Positions 1,317-44,354 of a stretch of 64,000 nt of DNA are shown here, in pieces. Position 1 is the stretch's first letter. Every line of letters starts with the position of its first letter. Source of the stretch: Sneathiellales bacterium (GTDB taxonomy: Bacteria > Pseudomonadota > Alphaproteobacteria > JANQFL01); contig JANQFL010000087.1 of assembly GCA_028277845.1 (NCBI GenBank), positions 13,704-77,703 on the forward strand. The letters are read 5' to 3'. The position numbers and the translations under genes were made by a program. A model generated the notes under the pieces. The model did no database searches and had not been told where the DNA came from. It saw nothing but the letters and a program-made list of their open reading frames with translations.

Positions 1317-2342
1317 TCATACCGGCAACTGGGCGCAGACCGCTTCGACCGGTGCCCGCAACAACCGGCGCCGCGCGACGATGTCGTCCCGGCGCGAAAC
1401 CAGTGTTTCGAACAGGCCCACATAATCGCTGCACATCCGTTCGGCCGTGTAGGGGTAATCTTTCAGAGCGGTGCGGAATTCACCGTAGCGCAGAAACATG
1501 TCCTGCAACGCCGATACGAATTCATCGCCTTCGAATATCAGCCCGAAGCCTTTTCCGTATTCCGGCAACGCGCCGCTGTTACGGTACAGCAAAGGCAACC
1601 CGCACATCGCACCTTCAATGTGATGCATGCCGCCCGGCTCGTTGACGGAACCGGTGATATAGACGTGATGGCGGCGCAGTTCGGCGGCCAGGTTATGGCC
1701 GCCGAGCGGTTGAAGATGCGTGGCGTTGTGGAACGCGAAGCCCTTCGGCACGTTGCCGACATAGGTGAAGGCGATGCGGTCGCGCCAGGCCGGGTCAGCC
1801 AGCATCCGGTCCAACTTCTGGTAGACGTCGAAACCCTTGAGCCAGTTGCCGCCCCAATGATGTGTCACGAGCCGCATGGGTTCGCCGCCGTTCCACTCGG
1901 CGTGGCCGGCGTCATGGAATACCGACGCGTCGGCACCATTGAAAATGACGGAGTGCGAGCGGACATCGTCGGGCTGCCAGACCGCCAGATCCTTGAGCCA
2001 ACTGGCTATGAACACGGTGTGGTCGGCACAGTAGTTGGCCAGGCGCAACCGCCAGTTCATGCCGCGGGTGTTCTTGCGTTCGTCACACTCGTTGATGCGG
2101 TGCACGACGACGGCACGGCGGTTCTTCAGCAATAGGTAGCGGAACGCATGACCATGGGTGAAGCAGGCGACCGGGTTGCGAAACCGCGGATCGGTGATCA
2201 GGATGATGTCGATGTCGCCGTCCTTCAGGTCGAACACGACGTCGTGCCCGGCATCCGTCAAGGCGTCCGCAAGGGCCTTGGCAAATTGATTGCCGCCACC
2301 CCAGGGTCCGTCGTGAACCTGGTGACCCAGCGCGACCTTCAT
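1317..2342 (-). CDS. glycosyltransferase, GT4-like
   Basis: Start placed at internal Met (MKVALGHQ), whose ATG overlaps the stop of the upstream gene by 1 nt; the ORF-track N-terminal extension is Arg/Pro/Gly-rich and looks non-coding. C-terminal EPGGMHHIEGAMCGLPLL resembles the GT4 donor-binding region. Confidence 0.6.
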   Translation of the reverse strand: MKVALGHQVHDGPWGGGNQFAKALADALTDAGHDVVFDLKDGDIDIILITDPRFRNPVACFTHGHAFRYLLLKNRRAVVVHRINECDERKNTRGMNWRLRLANYCADHTVFIASWLKDLAVWQPDDVRSHSVIFNGADASVFHDAGHAEWNGGEPMRLVTHHWGGNWLKGFDVYQKLDRMLADPAWRDRIAFTYVGNVPKGFAFHNATHLQPLGGHNLAAELRRHHVYITGSVNEPGGMHHIEGAMCGLPLLYRNSGALPEYGKGFGLIFEGDEFVSALQDMFLRYGEFRTALKDYPYTAERMCSDYVGLFETLVSRRDDIVARRRLLRAPVEAVCAQLPV

Positions 2343-3478
2343 CAGGCGGCCATCCTCGGACAGCGGTTCTGGATGGTGGCCACCAGGTCTTCGATCGAGC
2401 GGTTCATGCGCGCCAACGGAAAGGCCTGCACCGCGGTCTCCCGCGCCGCGGCGCCGATCTGGCGGCGCATCTCGGAATCGGCGCGCAGGCGGCGGATGGC
2501 ATCGGCCAGATCCGCCCGGTTGCCGGGTTCCACCAGCAGACAGTTCTCGCCGGACCGGAACACGTCGGGGTCCCACAAACCCTTGATGCGCGACAGCACC
2601 ACCGGCTTGCCACACGCCATGGCCTGCAGGGTGACGCTGTAGCCTGTCGGTTGCCAAACGTCCTTCAATGGCACCGCGACAATGGCCGCGCGGCGGTACA
2701 TGTCGCGTAGGACCTCATCGGTGACCTGCGAACCATGGTAGCTGCCGCGGATCAATTCGATCTCGGCGCGGCCGCCGGTGTCGACCGCCAGCCGGGTCAG
2801 AACTTTGATCGCGCCGTCATACCCGCAGGCGAACAGGGACGCATAGTCCCGGCTCGGGTCCGAACCGACCGACAGAACATATTCCTCGGCCAAGCCGTCG
2901 TCCGAGGGCGTCCAGAAATCGGTGTCGATGCCGAACAGAAACAGGCTGGTCTTGCTCTCATCCAGGCCGAAACGGCGCACCGATTCCTGCCGGTCCGCCT
3001 CGCCGAAGAAGAACAGATGATCGAGGCCGGCAAGCGCGTCGCGGACCTTGGTGTTTATGGCCCAACTGACCGGCGGCTTGACCGTCGTACCGATATCCGC
3101 AAGTCCGTGAAATCCGCCGGCGATCACCGACGAAATACCCGCCCGCTTGCCGTACAGGCCGAGGGACAAGCTGAACCAGTCGGTAAAGGTCAGGGCCATC
3201 GCGGCGCTGGAAACTTCGTTGCGCAAGGCGTTCACCCGTTGGCGACTGAATCCCGAGTTGCTCCAGCGGTTGCGCAGAATTTCCCATTGCAGCAGGCCGT
3301 TGTTGACCAGTCCGGGAGGGTCCTGACGCGTGTCGGCCATGGCGACGCGGCCGCCGATGTCGCGCAGATGCAGAAAGCCGTAAAAGAAATCCTTGGGTAC
3401 GGTGCCCGATGCCAACTCGCCCAGCCGCTGCTGGCGGCTGTTGCTGGGGAACAGGAACAGAATTGGGTTGTCGGACAC
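2342..3478 (-). CDS. glycosyltransferase family 4 (GT1-fold)
   Basis: 378 aa ORF with GT4-like C-terminal half (GENCLLVEPGNRADLADAIRRL). Confidence 0.7.
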   Translation of the reverse strand: MSDNPILFLFPSNSRQQRLGELASGTVPKDFFYGFLHLRDIGGRVAMADTRQDPPGLVNNGLLQWEILRNRWSNSGFSRQRVNALRNEVSSAAMALTFTDWFSLSLGLYGKRAGISSVIAGGFHGLADIGTTVKPPVSWAINTKVRDALAGLDHLFFFGEADRQESVRRFGLDESKTSLFLFGIDTDFWTPSDDGLAEEYVLSVGSDPSRDYASLFACGYDGAIKVLTRLAVDTGGRAEIELIRGSYHGSQVTDEVLRDMYRRAAIVAVPLKDVWQPTGYSVTLQAMACGKPVVLSRIKGLWDPDVFRSGENCLLVEPGNRADLADAIRRLRADSEMRRQIGAAARETAVQAFPLARMNRSIEDLVATIQNRCPRMAA

Positions 3479-3492: not shown

Positions 3493-4464
3493 TCAGAACG
3501 TTTGCCGGTACCAGCCGATCATCTTGTCCAGTCCCTGCTCCAGCGAGACCCGAAACGCGAAGTCGGGCACGATGGCGCGGAACCGGCTCATATCGGCGCT
3601 CTTGACGAACCGGCCTTCCGGTCTGGACGTATCGGTCTGCAGCACCGGGTCCAGGCCGCCGAGCCGGCAGATCAGAGCGACCAGATCGGTCATGCAGATG
3701 GTTTCCTCGGTGCCGATATTGATTGCGCCATTGCTGTGCCCGGACGCCACCAGCAACGCCATCATTTGGGCGCAGTCGCTGGCGTGGACGTAACTGCGGC
3801 GCTGTTTGCCGCTGCCCCAGATGACCACCGGATCGGCACCGTCCATCACCCGCTTCACCAGCATGGGGATGGCCTGGCTGAATTCGCCCATCCAGTTGTA
3901 GCGCTCGCCGTAGATGTTGAATGGCCGTACGATCGTCATCGGAATGCCGGACTCGCGGCCGGCGATCAGCGCCTTTTGCTCAAGAAATCGCTTGGCCCAC
4001 CCATAGCCCCAGTTGACCGCCTCGGGGTCGCCTTCGAACAGCGGTAGTTCGGGTACCGTGTCGGGACCGTCATCGGCGTAGACGCAGGACGACGAGGTAA
4101 TGAGAACGTGCTCGGGTTTGTGGACGCAGACGGCATCGAGTACGGCATTGGTGATGCGTTCGTTGTGCTGCAGGATGTCGTAGTGCCGGCCGGCCGCGTA
4201 ACCGACGCCGTAGGCCCGGCTGGCCAAATGAAACACCATTTGGGCATCGGCCAGGGCATCGTGCGCGAATTCGGCGATTTCAAGATTGCCTTCGCGGATA
4301 ATCACCTGGTCCGCAATCTGTTTCAGATTCTCGCGCCGGCCTTTGGAAAAATCGTCGACTACGATCACTTTTGCGCCCGCACCTACCAGCTCGTCGCAGA
4401 GATACGAACCGATCAGTCCGGCGCCGCCGGTCACGGCGACGGTCTTGTCGCGGACATTGGCCAC
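3493..4464 (-). CDS. NAD-dependent sugar epimerase/dehydratase (extended SDR)
   Basis: N-terminal Rossmann motif VTGGAGLIGSYL and catalytic YxxxK (YGWAK). Confidence 0.8.
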   Translation of the reverse strand: MANVRDKTVAVTGGAGLIGSYLCDELVGAGAKVIVVDDFSKGRRENLKQIADQVIIREGNLEIAEFAHDALADAQMVFHLASRAYGVGYAAGRHYDILQHNERITNAVLDAVCVHKPEHVLITSSSCVYADDGPDTVPELPLFEGDPEAVNWGYGWAKRFLEQKALIAGRESGIPMTIVRPFNIYGERYNWMGEFSQAIPMLVKRVMDGADPVVIWGSGKQRRSYVHASDCAQMMALLVASGHSNGAINIGTEETICMTDLVALICRLGGLDPVLQTDTSRPEGRFVKSADMSRFRAIVPDFAFRVSLEQGLDKMIGWYRQTF

Positions 4465-4474: not shown

Positions 4475-5350
4475 CTAGTCGTCCAGTTCATAGCCGACGG
4501 CACGGATCTCGGCCGCGAGTTCTTGTTCGATCAGCCGGCGTTGGTGCGCGTTTAAAGTCTGTTTCCAGCGATACAGCGGCGATTCACTCACCGTGGTCAT
4601 ATTGTCGTAAGACGAATTGGCGGCGATAGGTTTCCCCAACCGAGACGGTTGCAGAACGCAGGGATCGAAATCGATGCCGATGAAGTCGCACAGGCTGCGC
4701 ATGGTCTTTTCGGTATCTTGTACCAAATCCTCGTAACGCAGGCCGTAGGCGTTCGGCTCGGGAGAGATCCAGAACCGGTTGGCCACATTGCGCCACAGGC
4801 CGCAGAAATCAACGAGTTCATTGTCATCGAACGGCCGGTTGCGGGTCTTTTCGCGCAGTTTGGTGTGGCTGGCAAACGTGGCGCGCGGATCGCGGATCGA
4901 CACCACATACTTGGCCGGGCCGAAGATCTTCTCGACATAGGGAGTCGGCCGCTTGCAGATATTGGCGATATGATTGACCGTCACACCGCGCCGGGGATGG
5001 CCGCAGAACGACGGGAAATAGATCTCCTGAAATAAATCATAGAACTCTTGCAAATTGCGTACCGGTCCAACCCGGCGGCCCACTTTCTCGGTCAACTGTC
5101 CATATGCGCCTTCGCCGTGGATCATTGTAATCATGTCCTCGAGGCGCTGGTGAAAACCGGCCTCGCGCAGTTTTAGGCTTCGCGGCAGATAACGGTAGAG
5201 AGCGAAATAGGGCTGCTTGATTTCGTTTTTGTTGCAGGTATTCCAGTATTCGAACGGGAAGACGTTGCATGCGGGATGACCGTCCAGCAGATTGTTGGTC
5301 AACGTGCCGCCGGAGCGGGACATGGACACGATGGAGACGTTGGTGTTCAC
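4475..5350 (-). CDS. sulfotransferase (PAPS-dependent type)
   Basis: N-terminal 5'-PSB-like motif SMSRSGGT and 3'-PB-like SIRDPRA; 291 aa. Confidence 0.7.
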   Translation of the reverse strand: MNTNVSIVSMSRSGGTLTNNLLDGHPACNVFPFEYWNTCNKNEIKQPYFALYRYLPRSLKLREAGFHQRLEDMITMIHGEGAYGQLTEKVGRRVGPVRNLQEFYDLFQEIYFPSFCGHPRRGVTVNHIANICKRPTPYVEKIFGPAKYVVSIRDPRATFASHTKLREKTRNRPFDDNELVDFCGLWRNVANRFWISPEPNAYGLRYEDLVQDTEKTMRSLCDFIGIDFDPCVLQPSRLGKPIAANSSYDNMTTVSESPLYRWKQTLNAHQRRLIEQELAAEIRAVGYELDD

Positions 5351-6820: not shown

Positions 6821-8950
6821 CTAGACGAATTCGTTGAGGCCGGTCAGGCCGCGGTCGCCGCTGTGCAGGTCCTGGCCGTCGGGCGGCGGCACCAGGTGGC
6901 GGGCCTCGCCGGCATATTCGGGAATGCGGTAGAGGCGGCGAACGTAGATCTTCGACAGGATACGGCCGATGCCGATGACCGAATCGCCGTAGATTTCGAG
7001 AAAGTCGCGGGCGGTTTTCTTCTGTTCGTCGGTCAGATCGAATGAGATATCCGCCGGTTCGGCGAAGCGATAGTCGGCCACGTCGCGCGGCTGCAGGTCA
7101 TCGCTGAAGCGGATGACATCGAATTTGAATGCGCCGCTGGTCGAGGCGTCCAGATTATCGAACAAATGGCTCGCCCGCAGCCTGCCGAACTCGATCAGCT
7201 CGCGGCCCAATTCGATCGCCGCGGCGTCGACGCCCTTGTCGGTGAAATAATCGGTCAGCGTCTTGGTCGCGACCTCGGCCACCTCGTCGACCAAACGGAT
7301 CAGGCCGAGGGTCTTGTATTTGAAGATCAGGTTGGCGCCCAATTCGCCGTCGATATAGCGTTTGACCGTGTCGCGCTGGCGCACGAAGTCTTCCAGATCC
7401 TCGCGTTCGCCCCAAAGCTCCGCCTTGGTTTCGGCGAGGAAATCGGCGATCAGTTGATCGAAGCGGTCATTGCCGCGGAACGCCCAGATCCTTTCGATCC
7501 ATTCGTATTTCGAAAGGCTGAGCAGCTTGATCAGCCGCAGCACCTCCTTGTAGACGGCGTCGTTGTAAAACAGGTTGACGACCAGGTGCATGTGGCGGGC
7601 GCTGAGATATTCGTCGAAAGTGATGGCGTCGTTGCCGACGCAGATTTCCTCTACCTCAGCGGCGTTGATTGCCTCGCCGAGTACGTCGAAATAGCCGTAG
7701 CAGCGCGGCAGGACGCGATACCGATTGACCATCTTCCACTTGTCGACGCTTTCGCGCGTCGCCAGGTCGGTACCCGGCAGCAGCATCAGTTGAAACAGCG
7801 CCACGGTGTTGAAGTCGGCCTCGACGATGGTCCGTATGGTTTTCAGGTGCGCCTGCAGGCTGTCTCCCGGCAGACCGAGGATGATCTCGGAATAGCTGTT
7901 GGCGCCGATTTCGCTCGCCGCCAGGGCCAGGTCGAGAATTTCCTGCTCGTCGATGTTGTTGCGTTCGATGTTTTCCAGAACGTCCTTGTCGAGGCTCTGC
8001 ACCGATCCTGAAATGCGCAGCGAACCGCTGATGATGTTGGCGGCCTCAAGCACCCGGTGTTTTTGGTTCTTGCCGGTGGCGACGTTGATGTATTCGGGAA
8101 AACCGTACGTCTTCTGCACTTCGGCGATGGCGCGGCAGGTGTCGAGATCCTCCTTGTACATGCCGAAATTGGAGTCGGCGATGAACATGTCGGAGCGGGC
8201 CCGGCCGTTGCGGCGCAGTTCGGCCATGCGTGCGCCGATCAGGTTCATCTCGTCGCGCACCCGGTCGGTCTTGCCCTTGGCAACCTTGGAATAGTACTTG
8301 GTGCCCTCGACACAGAAGGTGCAGCGGAATGGACAGCCCCGGTTGGTCTGGATGATCGGCAGCATGACACCGTCGAAAAACTCGTCCATCAGCCCCTGAA
8401 GATAGGGTGACGGGATATCGGACAGATCGAGGCGCGGGGTGGTTTCCTGCGGTCCGTCGAAGCCGCCGTCCGCCATCAGGCGATGCACCGACGGCAAGCC
8501 GTGCGGTACGCCGCCCGGATCGAAGGCGCACGCCTCCAGCCGCTCGACGAGGTCGGCGAAGGCCGCCTCGCCCTCCTTGACGATGAAGAAATCGAACATG
8601 GGGTGGGCGCGGACGAATTCTTCCTGCTCGGCCGGATTTGTCGGATAGTTGGGGCCGCCGAACACGGTCACCACGCCAGGCAGCCTGCGCTTGATGACTG
8701 CCGCGAACTGGCTGCTCAGGTCCCGGTTCCAGATATAGTTGGAAAACCCGATCACCGCCGGTGCCGGTTCGTTGTCCAGGGCCGTGGCCAGCTTTTCCGG
8801 AAATTTGAACAGCCGGAATTGCGGCGGGTTAGGCCGCCTGCTGGCGGTATAACTGGCGATGCAGCCGATCGCCGCCGGCATGACGTCGGACGCAACGGTC
8901 TGCTGTGTATAGGTCAGGTCACATAGCCAGATCGACGGGGCTTCGGTCAA
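6821..8950 (-). CDS. B12-binding domain radical SAM protein
   Basis: CxxxCxxC motif NRGCPFRCTFC at 8312..8335. Start set at in-frame TTG 8950 preceded by GGAG 8 nt upstream; the ORF-track ATG at 9061 would overlap sqdB by 79 nt. A GTG at 9010 is an alternative. Confidence 0.7.
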   Translation of the reverse strand: MTEAPSIWLCDLTYTQQTVASDVMPAAIGCIASYTASRRPNPPQFRLFKFPEKLATALDNEPAPAVIGFSNYIWNRDLSSQFAAVIKRRLPGVVTVFGGPNYPTNPAEQEEFVRAHPMFDFFIVKEGEAAFADLVERLEACAFDPGGVPHGLPSVHRLMADGGFDGPQETTPRLDLSDIPSPYLQGLMDEFFDGVMLPIIQTNRGCPFRCTFCVEGTKYYSKVAKGKTDRVRDEMNLIGARMAELRRNGRARSDMFIADSNFGMYKEDLDTCRAIAEVQKTYGFPEYINVATGKNQKHRVLEAANIISGSLRISGSVQSLDKDVLENIERNNIDEQEILDLALAASEIGANSYSEIILGLPGDSLQAHLKTIRTIVEADFNTVALFQLMLLPGTDLATRESVDKWKMVNRYRVLPRCYGYFDVLGEAINAAEVEEICVGNDAITFDEYLSARHMHLVVNLFYNDAVYKEVLRLIKLLSLSKYEWIERIWAFRGNDRFDQLIADFLAETKAELWGEREDLEDFVRQRDTVKRYIDGELGANLIFKYKTLGLIRLVDEVAEVATKTLTDYFTDKGVDAAAIELGRELIEFGRLRASHLFDNLDASTSGAFKFDVIRFSDDLQPRDVADYRFAEPADISFDLTDEQKKTARDFLEIYGDSVIGIGRILSKIYVRRLYRIPEYAGEARHLVPPPDGQDLHSGDRGLTGLNEFV

Positions 8951-8982: not shown

Positions 8983-10149
8983 CTATCGATCCGCTTTCTC
9001 GGACGACCACTGGATCCGTGGGTTCATCACGTTCCGGTCCACGAAGTCTACATGCCGGCATACCGTTTGGTACATGGCGTCCAACACGGCTTCCGTTAGA
9101 AGGTTAGGGCGCAATCCGAGATCGACAAGTTTCGAGTGCTTTGCGTTGTAGTAATGATCCTCCAATTCCACCCGGGGATTCTCCAGGTGGTCGATCTGTG
9201 TATCCTGCCCGTTGCGCTTCGCGGCAGCGACCACCATTTCGGCCAGTTGCAGGACCGAGAACTGTTCGGTGAACTGGTTGAAGACACGGAAATCGCCGCG
9301 ATCGGCCGGATTGTCGACCGCCAGGGCGACGCACTGGATGGTGTCCTTGATATTGAGGAAACCGCGCGTCTGGCCACCCTTGCCGTAAACCGTCAGGGGG
9401 CATCCGATCGCCGCCTGGACCAGAAATCGGTTCAGAACCGTGCCGAACACATCGTCGTAATGGAACGACGTCTCCAGGTCGGGGTGCAGCACGGTCTGAT
9501 CCGTCTCGATACCGTAAACGACTCCCTGGTTGAGGTCGGTCGCCCGCATGTCCCAAATCCGGCAGGTGAATTCGATATTGGCCGAATCGTGCACCTTGGA
9601 CAGGTGGTAAAAACTGCCGGGACGCTTGGGGAACAGGACCCGGTCCTTGCGGCCGTTGTGTTCCAGCTCCAGCCAGCCTTCCTCGATATCGATGTTCGGC
9701 GTGCCGTACTCGCCCATGGTGCCCAGCTTCACCAAATGTGCGTCCGGGCAATGAGCCCGCATGGCGAACAGGACGTTCATCGTGCCTTCGATATTGTTTG
9801 TCTGGGTGTAGACCGCGGTCGTTCTGTCCTGCATCGAATAGGGGGCGGAGGGCTGCTCGCCGTAGTGCACGATGGCGTCGGGCTTGAATTCCCGGATCAC
9901 CTTGTAGACGAAGCGATGGTTACACAGATCCCCGACCATCAGCGCGATGTCGTTACCGCTGATTTCCTTCCAGCGCCGGACGCGCCGGTGCAACGGTGGA
10001 ATGGCCGCCAGCGGCTCGATGCCTTCCTCCAACTCCCATTGCCGTTTGGCGAAATTGTCGACGATGGCAACCTCGTCGCCGCGGGCGGAGAAATGCATGG
10101 CCGTCGGCCAGCCCAGATAACCATCACCACCAAGAACCAATACACGCAT
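8983..10149 (-). CDS. sqdB: UDP-sulfoquinovose synthase (SqdB/SQD1 family)
   Basis: Long blocks match SQD1 as I recall it: GGDGYLGWPTAMH, VKLGTMGEYGTPNIDIEEG, FYHLSKVHDS, RATDLNQGVVYG, LTVYGKGGQTRGFL, FRVFNQFTEQFSV, HYYNAKH. Confidence 0.85.
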   Translation of the reverse strand: MRVLVLGGDGYLGWPTAMHFSARGDEVAIVDNFAKRQWELEEGIEPLAAIPPLHRRVRRWKEISGNDIALMVGDLCNHRFVYKVIREFKPDAIVHYGEQPSAPYSMQDRTTAVYTQTNNIEGTMNVLFAMRAHCPDAHLVKLGTMGEYGTPNIDIEEGWLELEHNGRKDRVLFPKRPGSFYHLSKVHDSANIEFTCRIWDMRATDLNQGVVYGIETDQTVLHPDLETSFHYDDVFGTVLNRFLVQAAIGCPLTVYGKGGQTRGFLNIKDTIQCVALAVDNPADRGDFRVFNQFTEQFSVLQLAEMVVAAAKRNGQDTQIDHLENPRVELEDHYYNAKHSKLVDLGLRPNLLTEAVLDAMYQTVCRHVDFVDRNVMNPRIQWSSEKADR

Positions 10150-10197: not shown

Positions 10198-10932
10198 CTA
10201 AAGTCGGGATCCGTCACTCATGTGAGGGAGTTCGATGGCGCCGCTCGACAGCAGCGCCTCCGCAATCGGGAGGTCTTCGGGACCGTCTAGGTCGAGGCCA
10301 TAGCGCGAGTCAATGCCAATTCCCGCGCAGGGCTCCGCATAAAACCCCGATCCATCGCGCAAGGCGTCCGTCCGCGCCGCGATCAGATTGCCGAACACCA
10401 TCAGTTTCGGCTTGTTCTGTTTCAGCCGTGCGCTGCCGCGTTCCTCGGCAAACAGAAAGCCGACCCGGCCGTCGGCATCCAGCTGCCTCTGGTTCCAGGC
10501 GTGGCTGTTGTGTGCCACGGCGATGACGTTGTGGGCCGATCGTGCCGCGCCGTCGCGTTCGAACACGCCCAGCAGTTCCTCGACATGGACGGGCAGAAGA
10601 AACGGCGATGTCGGTTGAATCAGCACGATGACGTCGGGCAGCGTTTCGCCCTGGCCGGCCGCGCGTTCGAGATATTCCCGCACTACGTCGTCGACCTTGA
10701 CCGCGTCGCCGCCCAGGTCGTCGGGCCGCCGATCCACGTCCACCCCGAGCGCTATTGCCCGTTGGGCGATGCGGTCGCTGTCCGTCGAGCAGACGATGCG
10801 GTCGAGGCGCCCGGAGGCGATCGCCGCCGTGATGCCGTAATCGAGCAGCGGCCGGCCGGCGACGGACACCAGGTTTTTCAACGGAATGCTTTTCGATCCG
10901 CCCCGCGCCGGGACGAAACCCCAGGCGTTCAT
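10198..10932 (-). CDS. acylneuraminate cytidylyltransferase family (CMP-nonulosonate synthetase, NeuA/LegF/PseF-like)
   Basis: N-terminal PARGGSKSIPLKN motif typical of CMP-NeuAc/CMP-Kdo-type cytidylyltransferases; start overlaps upstream stop (ATGA). Confidence 0.75.
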   Translation of the reverse strand: MNAWGFVPARGGSKSIPLKNLVSVAGRPLLDYGITAAIASGRLDRIVCSTDSDRIAQRAIALGVDVDRRPDDLGGDAVKVDDVVREYLERAAGQGETLPDVIVLIQPTSPFLLPVHVEELLGVFERDGAARSAHNVIAVAHNSHAWNQRQLDADGRVGFLFAEERGSARLKQNKPKLMVFGNLIAARTDALRDGSGFYAEPCAGIGIDSRYGLDLDGPEDLPIAEALLSSGAIELPHMSDGSRL

Positions 10933-11888
10933 CGGCCGGACTCCCTCGCCAGTGCGCGCAACGCCTTGTCGATGACGAAGGCTTCGGTCTCGCTCCAGGC
11001 GTCGTGGGTCGAACCGCCGATATGCGGCGTCAGGATCAGATTGTCGTGTTCCCGGGCATAGACGGCGACGCGGCTGTCACCGAACGACTGGGCAAAATCG
11101 GTGCGGTATTCGCCGTCGATGGTATCGAGGGCGGCGGCCTGGAGATGGCCCGATTCCAGCAGGTCGAGCAAGGCGTCCAGGTCCAGGAGTTCGCCGCGGG
11201 CCGTGTTGACCACCACGGCGCCCCGGGGCAGCGCCTCCAGCACGGCGCGCGAAACGAGGTTGCGGGTTCCGTCGTTGGCCGGTGCGTGCAGGGACAGGAC
11301 ATCGGAGCCGGCGGCCAGGGCTTCGATTGTGTCCACGCCGCCGTCGACGTAGGGATCGTAGTAGGCCGTCTTCATACCGATGGCTTCGGCGATGCGGGCG
11401 ACCTTGCGGCCCAGCCGGCCATAGCCGACAAGGCCCAGGCGCATACGGGACAACATGCGCGGCGCACCCCACGGCCGCCGGTTCCAGGCACCACTGGCCG
11501 CCGCCGCGTGAGCCGCCGGAATCCGCCGCCAGGCCGCCATCATCAGGCCGATGGCGTGTTCCGCCGTCGGTGTGATGCCGTCGAGAAACTCGGGCTCGTC
11601 GTGCAGGGCGCACACCGCGATATGTCTGCTCGCGGCGGCCTGGGCATCGATATGGGGAATGCCCGTGGTGTTGGACACGACCGCGCGCAGGCGTGGGCAG
11701 CGATCCATCTTGTCCGCGTCCACGGCAAATCCCAGGGGCGCGAACAGCACTTCGGTTTCGGCCAACATGTCCGCCGTGTCGTCGCGCGGGTCATCCAACG
11801 CCGTCAGGTCGAAACAGTCCCGAAGCCGGGCCAGGTTCTCGGGCTGGTAGCTCATGATGCGGTAATAGAGGGCGCGGGGACGGGGCAT
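10929..11888 (-). CDS. D-isomer-specific 2-hydroxyacid dehydrogenase family
   Basis: NAD-binding GLVGYGRLGRKVA and C-terminal catalytic region (LILTPHIGGST). Start set at Met 58 of the ORF (11888) to avoid overlap with the upstream gene; Met 69 (11855) is an alternative. Confidence 0.7.
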   Translation of the reverse strand: MPRPRALYYRIMSYQPENLARLRDCFDLTALDDPRDDTADMLAETEVLFAPLGFAVDADKMDRCPRLRAVVSNTTGIPHIDAQAAASRHIAVCALHDEPEFLDGITPTAEHAIGLMMAAWRRIPAAHAAAASGAWNRRPWGAPRMLSRMRLGLVGYGRLGRKVARIAEAIGMKTAYYDPYVDGGVDTIEALAAGSDVLSLHAPANDGTRNLVSRAVLEALPRGAVVVNTARGELLDLDALLDLLESGHLQAAALDTIDGEYRTDFAQSFGDSRVAVYAREHDNLILTPHIGGSTHDAWSETEAFVIDKALRALARESGR

Positions 11889-11895
11889 CGCGGAG

Positions 11896-13050
11896 TCAGT
11901 AGGCCAGGGTCTTGTCGACCGGTGGCAAAGGCGCGGCAAGGCATGCGGCAATCTGTTCGCCCGCGCGGCCGTCGCCGTAAACCGTATCGGAGGGATAGAC
12001 GCCGTGCGCGATCTGGCGCCGGGTTGCGGCGACGATCTCGTCGGTGTCGTGGCCGACATTGACGACGTTGCCGCCCTGCTGGCGGCCGCGCTGGCGGTTG
12101 CCGATATTGACCACCGGGACTCCGAGGAACGCGCTTTCGCGAATGCCGCTCGACGTGTTGCCGACCAGGCATACCGCGTTCTTGATCAACGCCGCATAAC
12201 GTACGAAGTTCAGCCCCGAAATCGTCCGCACCGGCGGGGCATCGCCGTTCGATTGCAGGGCACTTAAAGGGCCGGCCACCGATTGGGCGCCGGCGTCGTC
12301 GTTGGGCAGCACCCAGATAGTGGGAATGTTCAACTCCACCACGGCATCGGCGGTGTGCGTGAACTGGCGCCGGGCATCGTCGTATTCCGTCACGACGGGA
12401 TGCTGCGACACCACCAGGTATTCCGCCGTCAGATCGACCGCGGCGCCGTTGCCGTTGTCGGTCAAACACCGGTCCAAATCATCACCGGCGGCCAAGTCGA
12501 GACCGGCGAGCTGATCCAGACTCGGCGTGCCGACGACGTGCACGGTGTCGGCAATCTCGCCCAGGCGGATCAGCCGGTCGGCCGCGTCCCTGTTGGCCGG
12601 AAAATGAATGTGGGCCAATTTGGTGATGGCGTGCCGGATGCGTTCGTCGATGGAACCCGAAACCTCGCCGCCCTCCAGATGGGCGATGACGGTATTGCGG
12701 CACATCGCCGCCTGGGCGATCGACAGGCATTCGTACCGGTCGGCGATGACCATCACCACGTCGGGATCGAGCTCGGTCAGAATTCGGCCGAATGCGATCG
12801 TGCAACGGCCGGCCGACTCGACGACCGAGTCGAGCGTCTGCCCAGCGGCGATATAGTCCAGGGTGCGGTCGATGGTGAAACCATCCCATTCGATAACTTC
12901 GACAAAGGAGTCGTAGTCTTGCCCGAGCAGGATACCGCCCACGACCAACTGCAGGGACAAATCGGGGTGGCGCTGAATGGCCGCCATGGTCGATTTCATC
13001 TTGCCGTAATTGCCCCGCGTGGTCAGGACGATGCAGATGCGGCGACTCAC
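11896..13050 (-). CDS. UDP-N-acetylglucosamine 2-epimerase (hydrolysing), NeuC/LegG-like
   Basis: 384 aa; motifs IADRYECLSIAQAA and HLEGGEVSGSIDE typical of the UDP-GlcNAc 2-epimerase family. Confidence 0.75.
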   Translation of the reverse strand: MSRRICIVLTTRGNYGKMKSTMAAIQRHPDLSLQLVVGGILLGQDYDSFVEVIEWDGFTIDRTLDYIAAGQTLDSVVESAGRCTIAFGRILTELDPDVVMVIADRYECLSIAQAAMCRNTVIAHLEGGEVSGSIDERIRHAITKLAHIHFPANRDAADRLIRLGEIADTVHVVGTPSLDQLAGLDLAAGDDLDRCLTDNGNGAAVDLTAEYLVVSQHPVVTEYDDARRQFTHTADAVVELNIPTIWVLPNDDAGAQSVAGPLSALQSNGDAPPVRTISGLNFVRYAALIKNAVCLVGNTSSGIRESAFLGVPVVNIGNRQRGRQQGGNVVNVGHDTDEIVAATRRQIAHGVYPSDTVYGDGRAGEQIAACLAAPLPPVDKTLAY

Positions 13051-14081
13051 GGTTCGAGAACCTCCCAGGTCAGCGGCGCGTCTGCGGCGACCGGTTGCTT
13101 GAGGCGCTTGCCGATCACATCGGCCAGATCACCGGGCGAGATCCCGGTGCCGGGCCGTTTGGCGGCGACATCGGTTTCGGCGATCACGTGACCGGCCGGC
13201 AGATCGTTGCGGGCAACCAGGGATTTCAGCGCCCATTCCATGCCCGGCCGCTCGCTGGCCGCCGGTTCCTTGCGGCCATGCCCGAGCATGGTCTCGACCC
13301 GTCGGATATCGGCCACCAATTGCGGCAGATCCTCGGGGCCGGCCGAGACCTTCCAGTCCTGGGCATTGGGCACGTCGCGCAGAATGGTGATGTGCTTCTC
13401 GATGATCTGGGCGCCGCGGGCGACCGCCGCAAGCACGGCCAAACCGTCTTCCGTGTGATCGGAATAACCGACCGGGCCGGGGAACGCCGTGCGTATATGG
13501 TCCATCGCACTCAGATTGACATCGGCCGGCGGTGCCGGATAGCTGGTGACACAATGCAGCAGGGCGATATCGGCGCATCCGGCGTACAGGCAGGCGTTCG
13601 TCGCTTCGGCGATATCGTCCAGGCCGTACATGCCGGTCGAGATGATCATCGGTTTGCCAAGCGCCGCCAGACGGGCCAGGAAGGCTGGATTGCCGCGCTC
13701 GCCCGAGCCGACCTTGACCGCCGGCACATCCAGGGTTTCGAGCCACGGGATACGGGTCTCGTCATGGGCGGTCGCCATGAACAACAGCCCGCGGGCTTCG
13801 CAGCGTTCTTTCAGTTCGACCGCCTGATCCAAGGTCAGGTTGCGCGGCCGCAACCGGTCCTGCCAGTCGGCGGCCCGGTTGGAGATCAGTGCCTCGACGT
13901 CGAAAAACTGGGTCTTGAAGACATCCGCGTTGGCATCGGCCGCCAGGTCCACCAGGTCACGGGCCAAGCCCATGTCGCCGAAATGGGCGACGCCGGCTTC
14001 GGCGATGAACAGGCAGGGTGCGTCACCGCCGACCCGGCGATCGCCGATGCGGAACGAAGACACCGGCTGAAGGCTGTTCAT
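13047..14081 (-). CDS. N-acetylneuraminate synthase family (NeuB/LegI/PseI-like nonulosonic acid synthase)
   Basis: Start at internal Met (MNSLQPV) giving ATGA overlap with the upstream ABC gene stop; NeuB-like TIM-barrel region plus C-terminal SAF-like domain. Confidence 0.8.
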   Translation of the reverse strand: MNSLQPVSSFRIGDRRVGGDAPCLFIAEAGVAHFGDMGLARDLVDLAADANADVFKTQFFDVEALISNRAADWQDRLRPRNLTLDQAVELKERCEARGLLFMATAHDETRIPWLETLDVPAVKVGSGERGNPAFLARLAALGKPMIISTGMYGLDDIAEATNACLYAGCADIALLHCVTSYPAPPADVNLSAMDHIRTAFPGPVGYSDHTEDGLAVLAAVARGAQIIEKHITILRDVPNAQDWKVSAGPEDLPQLVADIRRVETMLGHGRKEPAASERPGMEWALKSLVARNDLPAGHVIAETDVAAKRPGTGISPGDLADVIGKRLKQPVAADAPLTWEVLEP

Positions 14082-15925
14082 GAGGACCCGCCCTGGCCCG
14101 TGGCGGCCACCGGGGGCTGCTGCGCGAGGGCATGAAACAGCTCGGTCGACCGGTACAGCGACTGATAGGTGCCCTGTGCCGCCAGGCGGCCGTCTTCGAG
14201 GACGAAAATGGTATCGCACTCGGCGATGGTGGAAATGCGGTGGGCGACGGTGATGGTGGTCACTTCGCCTTTCAGTTTGGCCACCGTATCCTGGATCAGT
14301 TTTTCGGTGCCGGTGTCGAGCGAACTTGTCGCCTCGTCCAGCACAAGGATATCGGGCGCGTCATACAGCGCCCGGGCAATGGTGACGCGCTGGCGCTGAC
14401 CGCCGGAAAGCCGCAGGCCGCGGTCTCCCATCACCGTGTCGAGGCCGTCATCCAACTCGGCGACCACGTCGGTCAAGCCGGCCTTGTCGAGGGCGCGGCG
14501 TACCTTGTCGTTGTCGATGTCGGCGTCGGGCACGCCAAAGGCGACATTGCGCCGCAGTGTATCGTTGGCGATGAACGGCGACTGAGGCACATAGCCAATT
14601 CGGCCGAACCAGTTCGATCGGGCGAAGTCGGTGATGTCCGTGTCATCCAAACGCACGTGACCGTCGGTCGGCGGCAAAACACCGAGCAGGATGTCGACGA
14701 ACGTCGACTTGCCCGCGCCCGATGGGCCGACCACGCCGACCGATTGACCGCGGGCTATCGCCAGGGAAATGCGATCGAGCGCGGTGGCGGTCGTGCCCGG
14801 GTAGGAAAAACTGACGGCATCGAAGTGGATGGCCGACCACTCGTCCGGTACCTTGGCGCCACCACTGGGCTTCCCCCATTCCGTTTCCGCCGCCGCCAGT
14901 TCGGCGCGCAAGTCGGCGAGTCCCCTGGTATAGGCCCTGACCTTGGCCAGTTTCGTGATGGTACCGACAACACGGGACAGGGCAGGGATAAGACGGGCGC
15001 TGATCAATCCCAGCAAAGCGACCTGCGAGGCGATTTCGCCGGTGCTGGCACCGGCACCGAACAGGGACACCGCGACGATGATCAGTCCGAGCTGGCCGGT
15101 CAACAGCAGCCCCATCGGCACGGCCCGTTGCAGCAGTTGCGCCTTCATACGGCTTGTGGCGGCCCTGTGATAGAGACGTGTGTACATGCTGGTGAAGAAC
15201 CCTTGACGGGCCTTGACCTGGATATCCTTGATGCCGTTGACCGCCTCGACGCCAAGCTGGCTGCAATGCAGCCATTGGGTCCGTTCGTCGGCGGCGTAGC
15301 GGGCGATGCGTGGGCGAATGACCGCCATCATCATGACGGCGGCGAAGGCGATAATCGCGGCGACGGCAACGATCGCCTGCCACGGCAAGGCAACCGCCAC
15401 CACCGCAAAGGCAAAGACAAGCAGCAGCGAGGTGTACACCAGCTCCATGACCGTCGGATACAGCGACACCGCCGTGTTGGTCGGATCTTTGTAGAGCCGA
15501 TGGGACAGCATCGCCGCATTCTGGCGCAGGAACCAGACATAGGGTGCCTTGAGGCAGCGATTGAGCAGGTCGTTGGCCAGATAACGCCCGATACGGACAC
15601 TGAGGATTTCGGTCATGAACAGCGAGAAATAGCTGCCGATAACGCCCAGAACCAGCAGGCTCGCGGCGATAAGGCCGAGCATCTGGATCAACTCCCGTTC
15701 CGTGTCGGTCGCCAGGATATCGGCGATCTTTTGCAGCCATTCGCTGCGCTGAAGCATGGTCGGTTCGACCACCAGCGTCACGAAAGGCGCCGCCGAGGAT
15801 AGGGCGACCATTTCCAGGGCGCTGGTGAACACGAACAGCAGCAGGATCGCAGCCGCGGCAGTCTTCTGCCGGGCCGTCAGGAACGACCAGCCGATGGCGA
15901 CGATATTGGTTGACGGTTTCGTCAT
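14078..15925 (-). CDS. ABC transporter, fused permease/ATP-binding exporter
   Basis: N-terminal hydrophobic helices; Walker A GPSGAGKST, signature LSGGQRQR, Walker B ILVLDEATS. Start at Met 21 (MTKPSTNIV) avoids overlap with the upstream gene. Confidence 0.85.
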   Translation of the reverse strand: MTKPSTNIVAIGWSFLTARQKTAAAAILLLFVFTSALEMVALSSAAPFVTLVVEPTMLQRSEWLQKIADILATDTERELIQMLGLIAASLLVLGVIGSYFSLFMTEILSVRIGRYLANDLLNRCLKAPYVWFLRQNAAMLSHRLYKDPTNTAVSLYPTVMELVYTSLLLVFAFAVVAVALPWQAIVAVAAIIAFAAVMMMAVIRPRIARYAADERTQWLHCSQLGVEAVNGIKDIQVKARQGFFTSMYTRLYHRAATSRMKAQLLQRAVPMGLLLTGQLGLIIVAVSLFGAGASTGEIASQVALLGLISARLIPALSRVVGTITKLAKVRAYTRGLADLRAELAAAETEWGKPSGGAKVPDEWSAIHFDAVSFSYPGTTATALDRISLAIARGQSVGVVGPSGAGKSTFVDILLGVLPPTDGHVRLDDTDITDFARSNWFGRIGYVPQSPFIANDTLRRNVAFGVPDADIDNDKVRRALDKAGLTDVVAELDDGLDTVMGDRGLRLSGGQRQRVTIARALYDAPDILVLDEATSSLDTGTEKLIQDTVAKLKGEVTTITVAHRISTIAECDTIFVLEDGRLAAQGTYQSLYRSTELFHALAQQPPVAATGQGGSS

Positions 15926-15950
15926 GGATTCAGTTTGGAGTTCGCCCGCC

Positions 15951-17654
15951 TCAATAATCGGCGATGAACTTGTAGCTGTCCGCACGGTCCATCTTGTAGG
16001 AATGGTAGTGCATCCGGTCGGAATGGAACCAGCCGTGCAGCAGATCGGTTTCCTGTTGCAGCGGGGCGGGATTGTCGCTCACGACCTTCCGGTAATCCTC
16101 ATACAGGGCGAAGATCGCCGAATCGTCGCCGGTGACGAAACTGTCCTGCCAATCGGGATGGCAGAAGAACCAACCGGCAAAGACCTTGGCGCTCTCCCGT
16201 GTCTTGGCCAGATCCAGGTCGTTCCACCAGGGCCGTTTGAGGCAATCGATGTATTCTTCGCGGGATCGGCACCAGGTGCCGACGCCGCAATCGTGGAACC
16301 AACCGCGGTCCGCCATCAACGACGGCTTGCCGAGATACGCGTATTCGATGGCGGCGGTGCCGGTACAGGTGATGACGGCGTCGACGCAGTCCATCACCGC
16401 CCGGCCGTTCCAGCCCTGGGGCGCTATCTGGACATGGCCGGCCATGCGCTCGCCGATATAGTCGGCCAACGACGCGCCGCCGTACCACAGATCGCAGGGG
16501 TGGGGCTTGAACAGCCAGTAGACGTCGGTGTTTTGCTTGGCGATATCGACCGTCAGGGAAATCCAGTCGAGATAGTCTGTGAAGTTGTTGAGCCCGAACA
16601 CGTGCGGATAGTCGAACCAGTTGGAGGCATAGACGCCGACGATGGGCTTGTCCTCGGTCCAGCCGAAGCGCTGGCGCAATTGCTCCCGGTCGATGTGGTC
16701 GTTGGCGTTGATGTAGGCATACAAGGTGCCCAGATCCAACGTCTTGCCGTTGAGGCGGTTGTCCAGGTACGAGCCGCCGACCTCGGACAGGGACCCCAGC
16801 TGTTGCGGGCTCAGGTTTCGGGCGTGTTCGACCGGCAGGCGGTCGACCCAATCGAAGATGGCTTCGCGCGAGCGGATCTTCCAGTATCGCGGCACGCCGT
16901 AGCAACCGTACAGCACCACCGCCGGAATACCGAGCGATAGGGCGACATAAGCCAGCGCGCCATAACGGAACTCGATGACATGGCTGAGGATCAGCAGGGA
17001 CGTGCGTTCGGCCGACAATATGCGTTCGGCGGCGTCGATGCTCAGCAAGGCTTCGGCGACGTGGTCCTCCAGTTTCGGGTCCGCCATGTCGATGGTGCCG
17101 AGGCGGCGACGCTTGAGAATGCCGTCATAGACCCAGCCGCCGGGAAAGCCGTGCGGCAGGTCCCATTCCATCATGTCTTCCGGACGATCGGTCATATCCA
17201 GAAGCTGTCGTGCCCGGCGGCGGGCGTCCTTGAGGCCGGAACGGAAGTGTTTTTCAAACCGCACCGTGTCATTGATGCCGAGACGGTTCATGGTCTCCTT
17301 GGCCTCGCGGGTGCGCCACTTGCCGACGATGCCGACCTCGTTGGCGGTCGGCAGCCCGAGGGCCTTGCGCAACAAGGTCAGGCGCCACCAGTAGTTCGGA
17401 TTGAACCACATGCCGTCGATCAGCACCCGGTCCGGGAACGTCTTGTCCGTCGACTCGGCGATCTGCCGGAACAGATTCTCCGCCGGAATTCGCTGGCGTT
17501 GAATCTCCTGCCAGCGCGCCCGTTCGGACGGTGTGATTCGGCGGCGCAGCATTTGGCCCTGGGCGTAAAGGTGCTTCGCCGCGGTTAACATGCGCGAAGA
17601 GGCCTTCGACAAGGGCGACGGACGGGTATTTGATTCTGAGGTGGAAACGGTCAT
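15951..17654 (-). CDS. capsule-polysaccharide-biosynthesis-like protein (KpsC/KpsS/LpsZ-like fold with KPHP motif); candidate glycosyltransferase
   Basis: 567 aa with WLFKPHP motif. Family assignment tentative; start could also be Met 22 (17591). Confidence 0.45.
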   Translation of the reverse strand: MTVSTSESNTRPSPLSKASSRMLTAAKHLYAQGQMLRRRITPSERARWQEIQRQRIPAENLFRQIAESTDKTFPDRVLIDGMWFNPNYWWRLTLLRKALGLPTANEVGIVGKWRTREAKETMNRLGINDTVRFEKHFRSGLKDARRRARQLLDMTDRPEDMMEWDLPHGFPGGWVYDGILKRRRLGTIDMADPKLEDHVAEALLSIDAAERILSAERTSLLILSHVIEFRYGALAYVALSLGIPAVVLYGCYGVPRYWKIRSREAIFDWVDRLPVEHARNLSPQQLGSLSEVGGSYLDNRLNGKTLDLGTLYAYINANDHIDREQLRQRFGWTEDKPIVGVYASNWFDYPHVFGLNNFTDYLDWISLTVDIAKQNTDVYWLFKPHPCDLWYGGASLADYIGERMAGHVQIAPQGWNGRAVMDCVDAVITCTGTAAIEYAYLGKPSLMADRGWFHDCGVGTWCRSREEYIDCLKRPWWNDLDLAKTRESAKVFAGWFFCHPDWQDSFVTGDDSAIFALYEDYRKVVSDNPAPLQQETDLLHGWFHSDRMHYHSYKMDRADSYKFIADY

Positions 17655-17687: not shown

Positions 17688-18617
17688 TTAGACTTCATAT
17701 CCCAACGACGTCAGATCGTGGTCGAACATGGTGGCCAGCTTGCGGTTCGATTCGCGCCATTTCTCCCGCGCCCAATCGGGGACATGCCGGTCCACTTGCG
17801 CCAACGTCGTATCGCGCTTGTTGGGAAAACGCGATGACAATAGGCGCGCCGCCTGGCGGGCCCGCAGATGAGCCGAAAACGGCAATATGCCGGCCTCGTT
17901 GTGCTGGGTCTGGCAGAACCGGTTGGCAAACCGGTACAAACCACGCCACGGTTCGGAGAACGACACATTGACCGGTTCCTGACGCGGTTCGAAGTCCGGG
18001 TCGACACCGATGAATTCAAAGATGTCGCGGAAAAACCGGGTCCGATTGGCCTTGAGGTCCTCGAAGAACAGCACCTTGAAGTTTTCGCGGCCGAACTTCT
18101 CCTGGGCATAGGCGACGTAGCGGTCGTAGCACAGCTTCTCGAAGATATTGAGATGGCCGGTGCGCTCGAAATTACCACGCGGAATGTTCATGCTGATGGC
18201 CGGCGACGCGTGCTCGGACAGGAAGCCCTTCACATCGAGTACGCCGCCTTCCATGACATAGGCGTTCCAGGCCGAGCGCACGTAGGATTTCTGTTCGCGC
18301 AGGACGATGAACGCCTTGACGCCCGGCATAAGGTCGCTCAGCAGGTCGATGATCATGCGCGCACCGGCGCCGTCGAAGGCATGACCCGACATCGCTTCGG
18401 CGCTGAACACGGATTTCTTTGCCGCCGGCTTGGCATTCGAGAACGGCATGGCCCGCAGCTTGTCGAGGAACGCCGCACGGTCGAATTCAAAGGAATAGTC
18501 CCGCAATTCGAAGAACAGCCCCTTGTGATCGCGCCAGGAAAAATTGATCTCCGGATGCGCGTCCATGGCCACCATCTGCAGGTACGACGATCCCGTCTTG
18601 GGCAGGCCAAGATGCAA
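17688..18617 (-). CDS. sulfotransferase (second copy, different family from 4475..5350)
   Basis: PAPS-binding-like LHLGLPKTGSSYLQ motif. The ORF-track N-terminus overlaps the upstream gene by ~200 nt and is Arg/Ser/Pro-rich, so a non-ATG start near 18617-18656 is inferred (TTG at 18617 chosen; CTG at 18632 or 18656 possible). Confidence 0.55.
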   Translation of the reverse strand: MHLGLPKTGSSYLQMVAMDAHPEINFSWRDHKGLFFELRDYSFEFDRAAFLDKLRAMPFSNAKPAAKKSVFSAEAMSGHAFDGAGARMIIDLLSDLMPGVKAFIVLREQKSYVRSAWNAYVMEGGVLDVKGFLSEHASPAISMNIPRGNFERTGHLNIFEKLCYDRYVAYAQEKFGRENFKVLFFEDLKANRTRFFRDIFEFIGVDPDFEPRQEPVNVSFSEPWRGLYRFANRFCQTQHNEAGILPFSAHLRARQAARLLSSRFPNKRDTTLAQVDRHVPDWAREKWRESNRKLATMFDHDLTSLGYEV

Positions 18618-18657
18618 GACGTCGAACGGCAGGGCGTTATCCGATCGGCTAGGCAGG

Positions 18658-19365: not shown

Positions 19366-19369
19366 GGCG

Positions 19370-44339: not shown

Positions 44340-44354
44340 GGAACTGCCGCCGCT

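Follow-up and report, generated by a model that had tools for sequence, protein, structure and literature searches.

The window analysed here is a 64,000-nucleotide stretch of DNA from a Sneathiellales bacterium (positions 13,704 to 77,703 of contig JANQFL010000087.1). It carries, on its minus strand at 4475-5350, a gene that a first-pass annotation took for a sulfotransferase dependent on 3'-phosphoadenosine 5'-phosphosulfate (PAPS) in a glycan island. The acceptor is known for few bacterial carbohydrate sulfotransferases, and most of these enzymes are missed by standard references (PMC11625862, PMC10483923); the question raised by this locus is what its sulfotransferase, termed ST1, acts upon. 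We propose, at a probability of about 0.65, that ST1 is a soluble cytoplasmic PAPS-dependent O-sulfotransferase of the TPST/CurM-ST/NodH lineage, which decorates the glycan of the surrounding gene array before its export.

ST1 is a member of the PAPS-dependent sulfotransferase superfamily

ST1 is encoded by a single open reading frame (ORF) with a GTG start and comprises 291 amino acids. The ORF is a real gene rather than a chance occurrence, since an identical protein (P0001) is on record and homologues exist at 82, 55 and 45% identity. The hidden Markov model search suggested by the first-pass annotation was positive for both Pfam families: Sulfotransfer_3 (PF13469) matched ST1 with an E-value of 7.1e-19 and 69.4 bits (cutoff 27) over profile positions 2-216 of 216, and Sulfotransfer_1 (PF00685) with an E-value of 2.3e-11 and 44 bits (cutoff 22). 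All significant matches among the PDB sequences were sulfotransferases, the best being the sulfotransferase (ST) domains of OLS (1.7e-10) and CurM (6.7e-9), with TPST1/2 also present; a five-sequence profile lifted the PDB sulfotransferase matches to 1e-12 through 1e-10. An AlphaFold2 model computed from a 40-sequence alignment was obtained with a pLDDT of 91 and a pTM of 0.89. When this model was compared with the PDB by Foldseek, the best 50 matches were all PAPS-dependent sulfotransferases, 49 of those listed having E-values of 1e-3 or below, and they included the CurM ST, TPST1/2, the OLS ST, SULT2A1, Stf1/Stf9, heparan-sulfate 3-OST, LGS1 and retinol dehydratase. The protein contains no hydrophobic segment (maximum 19-residue Kyte-Doolittle value, KD19, 0.65).

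Both motifs named in the first-pass annotation were located by reverse-complementing the DNA, SMSRSGGT at residues 9-16 (window 5303-5326) and RDPRA at residues 153-157 (window 4880-4894). The functional elements of ST1 are as follows.

4868-4894, minus strand: 3'-phosphate-binding (3'-PB) motif RDPRATFAS (Arg153 ... Ser161), from alignment to TPST1 and CurM/OLS
4970-4975, minus strand: Asn126-His127, a clade-specific pair where TPST has Asn-Lys158, from profile alignment to TPST1
5249-5251, minus strand: Glu34 (P32-x-E34), candidate general base; P32 at least 90% conserved, E34 invariant in the ST1 clade
5303-5326, minus strand: 5'-phosphosulfate-binding (5'-PSB) loop SMSRSGGT (Arg12, Gly14, Thr16), from alignment, conservation and the model

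In the model the SRSGGT loop is placed between a strand (3-9) and a helix (15-22), as expected of a 5'-PSB loop; in alignment its counterparts are PRSGTT in TPST1 and PRSGST in the CurM/OLS sulfotransferases. Gly14 of the loop is invariant and Arg12 nearly so across the homologues; the other residues invariant in the 40 homologues are Leu17, Asp23, Arg153, Asp208 and Val210, and Pro32, Pro155, Tyr206 and Glu207 are conserved in at least 90%. Arg153 and Ser161 were assigned to the 3'-PB motif because IRDPRATFAS aligns with VRDGRASVHS of TPST1; the corresponding CurM/OLS segment is VRHPY.VIES. By profile score, 5'-PSB loop, 3'-PB motif and fold, ST1 is a member of the PAPS-dependent sulfotransferase superfamily and of PF13469. 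The Pfam matches, the motifs, the confident model and the uniformly sulfotransferase structural matches thus bear out the first-pass assignment to the PAPS type, and ST1 is a new bacterial glycan-locus sulfotransferase within the known PF13469 type.

Catalysis by TPST involves Arg78, Glu99 and Lys158 in TPST2 numbering (PMC10951654). Glu34 of ST1 lies at +22 from the PSB arginine versus +21 for Glu99 of TPST2, an equivalence drawn by manual spacing and not by a tool alignment. In the profile alignment the ST1 segment 'tvnhvan' stands opposite 'YLCNKDP' of TPST1, placing Asn126-His127-Ile128 opposite Cys-Asn-Lys. Asn126 and His127 are invariant in the five-member ST1 clade, down to 35% identity, and more distant homologues carry EKTP at this place. 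Glu34 and/or His127 may serve as the general acid/base of ST1.

ST1 is embedded in a glycan-assembly array

From the start of the window to position 20437 every gene lies on the minus strand, separated by short gaps or overlapping. ST1 is embedded in, and probably co-transcribed with, this glycan-assembly array, and for that reason glycan O-sulfation is its most reasonable function. The first-pass annotation had placed ST1 next to glycosyltransferases (GT) and read this as O-sulfation of the glycan; indeed, the gene of a GT-B fold protein (termed GTB457) lies 52 nt upstream, genes of a short-chain dehydrogenase/reductase (SDR) epimerase and a GT4 enzyme follow downstream on the same strand, and the reading gains support from this setting, with activity and acceptor being what we would expect from it.

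The arrangement recurs in other species. Nearly the whole array is common to the window and two metagenomic loci, L002 (a 1.1-Mb contig) and L003/L021, whose proteins are 41-75% identical to those of the window and whose ST1 orthologues are 45-55% identical. In both L002 and L003 the ST1 gene directly follows the GT-B gene, the ST1 start overlapping the GT-B stop by 4 nt in L003, so that the ST1-GT-B adjacency is kept in three loci; a second sulfotransferase of the array, ST2, is present in L002 and L003 as well. ST1 is thus co-oriented and syntenic with glycosyltransferase, sugar-nucleotide and export genes across species, as looked for in a polysaccharide sulfotransferase. The genes of the array are listed in the order of transcription.

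19370-20437, minus strand: SDR sugar-nucleotide dehydratase/epimerase, first gene of the array in the window, from domain annotation
18658-19365, minus strand: cytidylyltransferase 2 (PF02348), KdsB-like, sub-threshold
17688-18668, minus strand: ST2, second, highly divergent sulfotransferase, 326 amino acids, TTG start, from profile matches
15951-17654, minus strand: unk567, distant GTB457 paralogue (KPHP motif), 567 amino acids, directly downstream of ST2
14078-15985, minus strand: ABC exporter with fused transmembrane and nucleotide-binding domains, MsbA/PglK/HepA-like (ABC_membrane and ABC_tran domains)
13047-14219, minus strand: NeuB-family nonulosonic acid synthase with SAF domain (PF03102, PF08666; TIGR03569 298 bits, below the cutoff of 400)
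11896-13050, minus strand: NeuC-type hydrolysing UDP-GlcNAc 2-epimerase (TIGR03568 347.5 bits, cutoff 235.9)
10929-12059, minus strand: D-2-hydroxyacid dehydrogenase (phosphoglycerate-type), between NeuC and cytidylyltransferase 1; start probably internal
10198-10932, minus strand: cytidylyltransferase 1, CMP-ulosonic acid synthetase type (PF02348; PseF-like TIGR03584 92 bits, below cutoff)
8983-10149, minus strand: UDP-sulfoquinovose synthase, SQD1/SqdB orthologue, from the SQD1 match
6821-8950, minus strand: B12-binding radical-SAM enzyme of the KedN5-like C-methyltransferase family, 709-amino-acid call taken from L001
5403-6776, minus strand: GTB457, GT-B fold transferase, 457 amino acids, without a Pfam model, directly upstream of ST1
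4475-5350, minus strand: ST1, soluble PAPS-type sulfotransferase, 291 amino acids (PF13469, PF00685, model)
3493-4464, minus strand: SDR epimerase/reductase, GDP-fucose-synthase-like, 10 nt downstream of ST1
2342-3478, minus strand: GT4 glycosyltransferase
1317-2342, minus strand: GT-like protein, 341 amino acids
486-1286, minus strand: S-adenosylmethionine (SAM) methyltransferase

The array runs past the start of the window, and L001, a contig of the same organism, has two further GT4 genes there. Upstream of the array, rplM, rpsI and argC lie on the other strand. Several mechanical ORF calls of the array (13047-14219, 14078-15985, 10929-12059 and 18658-19677) are over-extended at the N-terminus and overlap their upstream neighbours, their true starts being probably internal; for NeuB, called with 390 amino acids versus 343-345 in its orthologues, the start probably lies near 14080. 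The radical-SAM gene adjoins ST1 in L002 and L003 and is one gene apart in the window. The best NCBIfam match of its product, far below cutoff, is the KedN5-family C-methyltransferase. The product is also encoded in L002, L003 and L019, with a shorter homologue in L014; it could C-methylate a sugar.

Proposed mechanism of glycan sulfation

In the proposed reaction, Arg12 and the backbone of the SRSGGT loop would hold the 5'-phosphosulfate of PAPS, and Arg153 and Ser161 its 3'-phosphate. The carboxylate of Glu34 and/or the imidazole of His127 would deprotonate the acceptor hydroxyl, followed by in-line sulfuryl transfer. The acceptor would be a sugar of the array's glycan, which is predicted to contain a nonulosonic acid made by NeuC/NeuB, sulfoquinovose from SQD1 and hexoses added by GT4 enzymes, as well as methyl groups. 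The substrate would be a nucleotide- or lipid-linked intermediate, sulfated at the cytoplasmic face, with export by the MsbA/PglK-like ABC transporter to follow; sulfation is placed before export because ST1 is soluble and PAPS is cytoplasmic.

Each of the two sulfotransferases of the array adjoins one GT-B paralogue with an HP motif (described below). ST1 is therefore most likely to act on the residue that its adjoining GT-B enzyme adds, either a nonulosonic acid or sulfoquinovose, or on the residue next to it. Nonulosonic acid specifically, suggested by the gene content, would be a tentative choice, and we hold it to be less probable than not. The surface glycan of this bacterium is probably rich in sulfur.

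UDP-sulfoquinovose synthase, paired GT-B proteins and a second sulfotransferase

The first-pass annotation was right about the sulfotransferase and passed over the nonulosonic-acid and UDP-sulfoquinovose genes of the island. The product of 8983-10149 matched Arabidopsis SQD1 (1qrr) with high identity over its full length (E-value 9.5e-153, residues 2-382) and retains the GTMGEYGTP and FYHLSKVHDS motifs; its NF041015 score of 464 bits is under the cutoff of 575. On this similarity we treat it as a true UDP-sulfoquinovose synthase. SQD1, SqdB and Agl3 serve plant and bacterial sulfolipid synthesis and the N-glycan of Sulfolobus. Here, the SQD1 gene adjoins NeuB, NeuC and GT-B genes and no recognised sulfolipid glycosyltransferase gene (sqdD/sqdX, as judged by Pfam/NCBIfam annotation only), and this setting suggests a sulfoquinovose-containing glycan, by analogy with Sulfolobus, over the lipid sulfoquinovosyl diacylglycerol. 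In two further loci, L019 and L020, the SQD1 gene immediately precedes the GTB457 gene, to the point of overlap. SQD1 would then provide a second, sulfite-dependent way of putting sulfur on the glycan.

GTB457 has at least 999 uncharacterised homologues, and this family travels with NeuB, NeuC, cytidylyltransferase and SQD1. Its weak matches are to a BFO_1060-family glycosyltransferase, Glyphos_transf and Capsule_synth. The family carries an invariant RPHPWR, and unk567 has KPHPCD. An HP motif is common to CMP-sialic-acid and CMP-Kdo transferases (PMC2169525, PMC10148158), and the resemblance of RPHPWR to it is a lead for the donor, no more. No Pfam or NCBIfam model matched unk567; an hhalign comparison with the GTB457 profile aligned the two through KPHP with a probability of 92.3% and an E-value of 5.6e-7, which makes unk567 a distant paralogue of GTB457.

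Calling ST1 the first sulfotransferase of the island proved apt, since a second, divergent one (ST2) is encoded at 17688-18668. ST2 was first spotted by eye from the string GLPKTGSS and then by profile methods; phmmer --max with ST1 over the window found ST1 itself alone and did not detect ST2. Its motifs are GLPKTGSSYLQ and VLREQKSYVRS, and its matches to the Pfam sulfotransferase families are sub-threshold. ST2 matched an Alicyclobacillus sulfotransferase (3rnl) at 2.8e-4 as a single sequence and at 7.5e-8 with a profile, and an hhalign comparison with the ST1-family profile gave a probability of 96.6% and an E-value of 5.8e-10. Among 5.8 billion proteins the ST2 family numbers only four; each of the three ST1-type loci encodes one of them, and the fourth is on a short contig of about 3 kb. 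The array thus holds two parallel modules, one of cytidylyltransferase 2, ST2 and an HP-motif GT-B protein, the other of an HP-motif GT-B protein and ST1.

The sulfotransferases are accessory to a widespread core cluster

Two loci retrieved via GTB457, in a 4.45-Mb genome (L019) and a Rhodospirillales metagenome-assembled genome (MAG; L020), hold the core of the cluster beside lptE/lptD. This core comprises the ABC, NeuB, NeuC, cytidylyltransferase, SQD1 (69-74% identity), GTB457, GT4, SDR and methyltransferase genes; ST1, ST2 and the 2-hydroxyacid dehydrogenase are absent from both loci. The dehydrogenase occurs only in the variants with ST1 and ST2 (the window, L002 and L003). An exhaustive HMMER search with ST1 over 1.84 billion representatives returned 3462 matches at an E-value of 1e-3 or below, 240 at 1e-10 and 8 at 1e-30. 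Given 8 ST1 representatives at 1e-30 versus the number of GT-B homologues, and the lack of ST1 in L019 and L020, ST1 is a rare accessory of a common core, and together with ST2 and the 2-hydroxyacid dehydrogenase it forms the accessory decorations of a rare variant of a widespread core cluster. The cluster is probably associated with lipopolysaccharide (LPS).

Several distant relatives of ST1 lie near nonulosonic-acid genes

The more distant relatives of ST1 (24-35% identity) were retrieved without reference to NeuB, and NeuB-family and CTP_transf_3 genes adjoin them in at least three other architectures. One is a Pse-type cluster with the order ABC, PseB-like, PseC-like, unknown, methyltransferase, NeuB, sulfotransferase, DUF4910 and cytidylyltransferase, found in L005 (a Pseudorhodoplanes MAG), L009, L011 and L015; in these clusters the Sulfotransfer_3 gene is wedged between the synthase and the cytidylyltransferase (9968-10966 in L005, 8001-9008 in L015, likewise in L009 and L011). 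In L004, a Desulfuromonadales MAG, the order is sulfotransferase, tetratricopeptide-repeat protein, ABC, PLD, cytidylyltransferase, HAD, NeuB-cupin and GFO oxidoreductase, and in L014 it is sulfotransferase, NeuB and PseG-like, with a radical-SAM homologue further along. A sulfotransferase-radical-SAM pairing in L004 was considered and rejected, the 713-amino-acid ORF upstream of the sulfotransferase being unrelated to the radical-SAM protein.

A cytidylyltransferase lies near the sulfotransferase in L010, where no NeuB match was found and the upstream region in which NeuB would fall is cut off. L017 has a cytidylyltransferase and a weak GTB457-like protein with a sulfotransferase on either side, again with no NeuB match. 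NeuB is absent at four loci: L006 (a Wzx/Wzy cluster), the P0009 locus, which holds sulfatases and three sulfotransferases, L016 (housekeeping genes) and L018 (a RiPP-like context; RiPP, ribosomally synthesized and post-translationally modified peptide). Distant ST1 homologues also occur in polysaccharide clusters with Wzx/Wzy or GT genes. The enrichment of nonulosonic-acid genes around these sulfotransferases, as counted over the loci named here, is suggestive only.

A bolder interpretation, which we regard as possible and on balance doubtful, is that ST1 and its distant relatives are bacterial nonulosonic-acid O-sulfotransferases. Their substrate might be the sugar in free or CMP-activated form, or the sugar newly transferred by an HP-motif GT-B enzyme, and together with ST2 and SQD1 they might give rise to a surface glycan, possibly LPS-linked, with sulfated sialic-acid-like residues and a C-sulfonated sugar. 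To our knowledge, the combination of these two on one glycan is undescribed in bacteria. In the literature we found no description of a sulfotransferase inside a nonulosonic or pseudaminic acid cluster, of a cluster combining SQD1 and NeuB, or of sulfoquinovose in LPS. In vertebrates, sialate O-sulfotransferases were identified only in 2022 (WSCD1/WSCD2; PMC9304399); they would offer a functional analogy only, if ST1 sulfates nonulosonic acid, the basis for ST1 being its gene neighbourhood.

Comparison with known sulfotransferase systems

ST1 shares with human and tick TPST1/2, CurM and Synechococcus OLS the same fold, the R-S-G-x-T 5'-PSB loop and the R...S 3'-PB motif. In all of them the PSB loop has an arginine in place of the lysine of cytosolic SULTs, the loop is followed by the same L-D/A-G/A-H-P helix, and a PxE acidic residue is found where Glu99 of TPST2 lies. 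However, ST1 is only about 17-20% identical to these proteins. Where they are Golgi enzymes or parts of a polyketide synthase (PKS) module, ST1 stands alone as a bacterial protein encoded in a glycan array, and its acceptor is probably a sugar rather than a tyrosine or a beta-hydroxyacyl-ACP (ACP, acyl carrier protein).

Compared by description, NodH and KpsS of Mesorhizobium loti are, like ST1, bacterial PAPS-dependent sulfotransferases associated with surface or secreted glycoconjugates. NodH is detected only by PF13469, the family that also detects ST1, through an RxG PSB motif; for KpsS, a fucosyl sulfotransferase activity towards capsule has been reported (PMC11625862). Unlike these enzymes, ST1 lies within a NeuB/SQD1 cluster with no nod or rkp genes. 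The array resembles in its gene classes the marine sulfated capsule and O-antigen loci (e.g., Vibrio sp. KMM 8419), in which sulfotransferase genes lie in among those for GT, sugar-nucleotide and ABC-transporter proteins and for which cytoplasmic sulfation before export has been proposed (PMC11641403), as we propose here. Sulfotransferase genes within bacterial glycan loci thus have precedent (PMC11625862, PMC11641403). The likeness to SQD1/SqdB/Agl3 systems belongs to the neighbour of ST1 at 8983-10149, not to ST1. The first-pass view that sulfated bacterial polysaccharides are uncommon is somewhat overstated, as rhizobia, mycobacteria and marine bacteria are known to have sulfated glycans and the sulfotransferases for them, and the extracellular polymeric substances (EPS) of sludge contain sulfated glycoconjugates (PMC11625862, PMC11641403, PMC10483923).

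Weighing glycan O-sulfation against alternative functions

Several observations weigh against ST1 as a glycan O-sulfotransferase. A Pfam scan of all larger ORFs in the 64-kb window revealed no cysD, cysN, cysC or cysQ gene, and PAPS-synthesis genes were likewise absent from the portions of L002, L003 and L021 that were retrieved. Co-located cysDNC has been called a hallmark of sulfated capsular polysaccharide loci (PMC11641403); the marine loci have their own cysDNC in contrast to this window, and no NeuB or SQD1 is reported for them. The equivalent of Lys158 is missing in ST1, which has Asn126-His127-Ile128 instead and hence a non-canonical catalytic constellation. NCBIfam contains no model naming ST1, and structure comparison did not resolve the donor sugar of GTB457. 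The link to LPS comes from lptD/lptE adjacency in two related loci only, the array in the window abutting rplM-rpsI-argC.

Two class assignments were considered and rejected. As a TPST/RaxST-type enzyme, ST1 has Arg12 and a plausible Glu34, but the catalytic lysine of the triad is absent. The raxX-raxSTAB logic does not apply, as the exporter has only ABC_membrane and ABC_tran domains and the neighbours are sugar-nucleotide and GT genes. For the activating class of CurM/OLS, ST1 is a stand-alone protein of 291 amino acids, and the array contains no PKS, ACP or thioesterase domain.

These comparisons bear on the possibility that the acceptor is not a carbohydrate at all. ST1 could sulfate a peptide tyrosine in the manner of TPST/RaxST, or else some RiPP, lipid or small metabolite, its position in the glycan array being incidental; TPST1/2 are among its best structural matches, an ABC exporter is close by, and of its remote homologues one (P0024) is found in a RiPP-like context with PqqD, HprK-C-like and Asn-synthase genes and one (P0015) is surrounded by housekeeping genes. 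Yet the nearer homologues of ST1 are more consistently within glycan and nonulosonic-acid clusters, and synteny with glycan genes is kept at 45-55% identity. Moreover, the TPST lysine is lacking, the exporter has no C39 peptidase domain, and no raxX-like precursor gene appears in the window annotation, in which small ORFs were not specifically searched. We consider a non-carbohydrate acceptor improbable. An activating role, which we judge quite improbable, would have ST1 transiently sulfate a hydroxyl of a nonulosonic acid or other sugar; this would serve only to turn the hydroxyl into a leaving group and so permit elimination, deoxygenation or ring formation, perhaps with the radical-SAM enzyme, and the final glycan would bear no sulfate from ST1. 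Examples of activating sulfation are the CurM and OLS ST domains, retinol dehydratase and sorghum LGS1; the first two are the closest solved relatives of ST1 by sequence and fold, and the other two are among its fold matches. The proximity of the radical-SAM gene in L002, L003 and the window, and the co-occurrence of sulfotransferase, NeuB and a radical-SAM homologue in L014, would also fit. However, identity to the CurM ST is only about 20%, the TPSTs, which leave a stable sulfate, match ST1 equally well, the array offers no partner of the PKS kind, and L019 has the radical-SAM gene without a sulfotransferase, which makes that gene independent of ST1.

It is also conceivable that ST1 has lost, or is losing, its catalytic function and is a passenger gene of recent acquisition. 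In addition to the missing lysine and the rarity of the ST1 clade, the GC content of ST1 (55.9%) and its GC at third codon positions (71.9%) are the lowest among the island genes. We hold this to be very improbable, as the ORF and its PSB, PB and PxE motifs are intact, the model is confident, the place beside the GT-B gene is kept in three loci, and purifying selection is indicated by the Asn-His pair, which does not vary among five orthologues with identities as low as 35%. We therefore retain O-sulfation of the array's glycan as the preferred function of ST1.

Significance of the locus and remaining genes of the window

ST1 is a testable candidate in an informative context, with two sulfotransferases beside two paralogous GT-B proteins, SQD1 and a sialic-acid-like pathway. 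What the analysis adds is this context: the second sulfotransferase, a genuine SQD1 in a glycan array, the accessory status of the sulfotransferases and a repeated, unproven association with nonulosonic-acid genes. If that link is true, ST1 and its relatives would be the first bacterial sialate-type O-sulfotransferases. Environmental EPS is reported to be both sialylated and sulfated, and the sulfotransferases responsible are unknown (PMC10483923); a true link would explain such glycoconjugates and supply the missing EPS genes. If the link is false, ST1 would be one more polysaccharide-decorating sulfotransferase.

The remainder of the window is housekeeping in character, with phaC, hom, glpX, recJ, a molybdo-hydroxylase/Cox cluster and Mrp antiporter genes. 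Three features unrelated to ST1 were recorded there. The region 42073-50012 holds the molybdo-hydroxylase/CO-dehydrogenase-like cluster (XdhC, a CoxE-like VWA protein, a MoxR-type AAA protein, an FAD subunit, a large molybdenum cofactor subunit and CoxG), a 331-amino-acid Sel1-repeat protein is encoded at 34860-35855 on the minus strand, and a 296-amino-acid protein with multiple EF-hand calcium-binding motifs at 53001-53891 on the plus strand.

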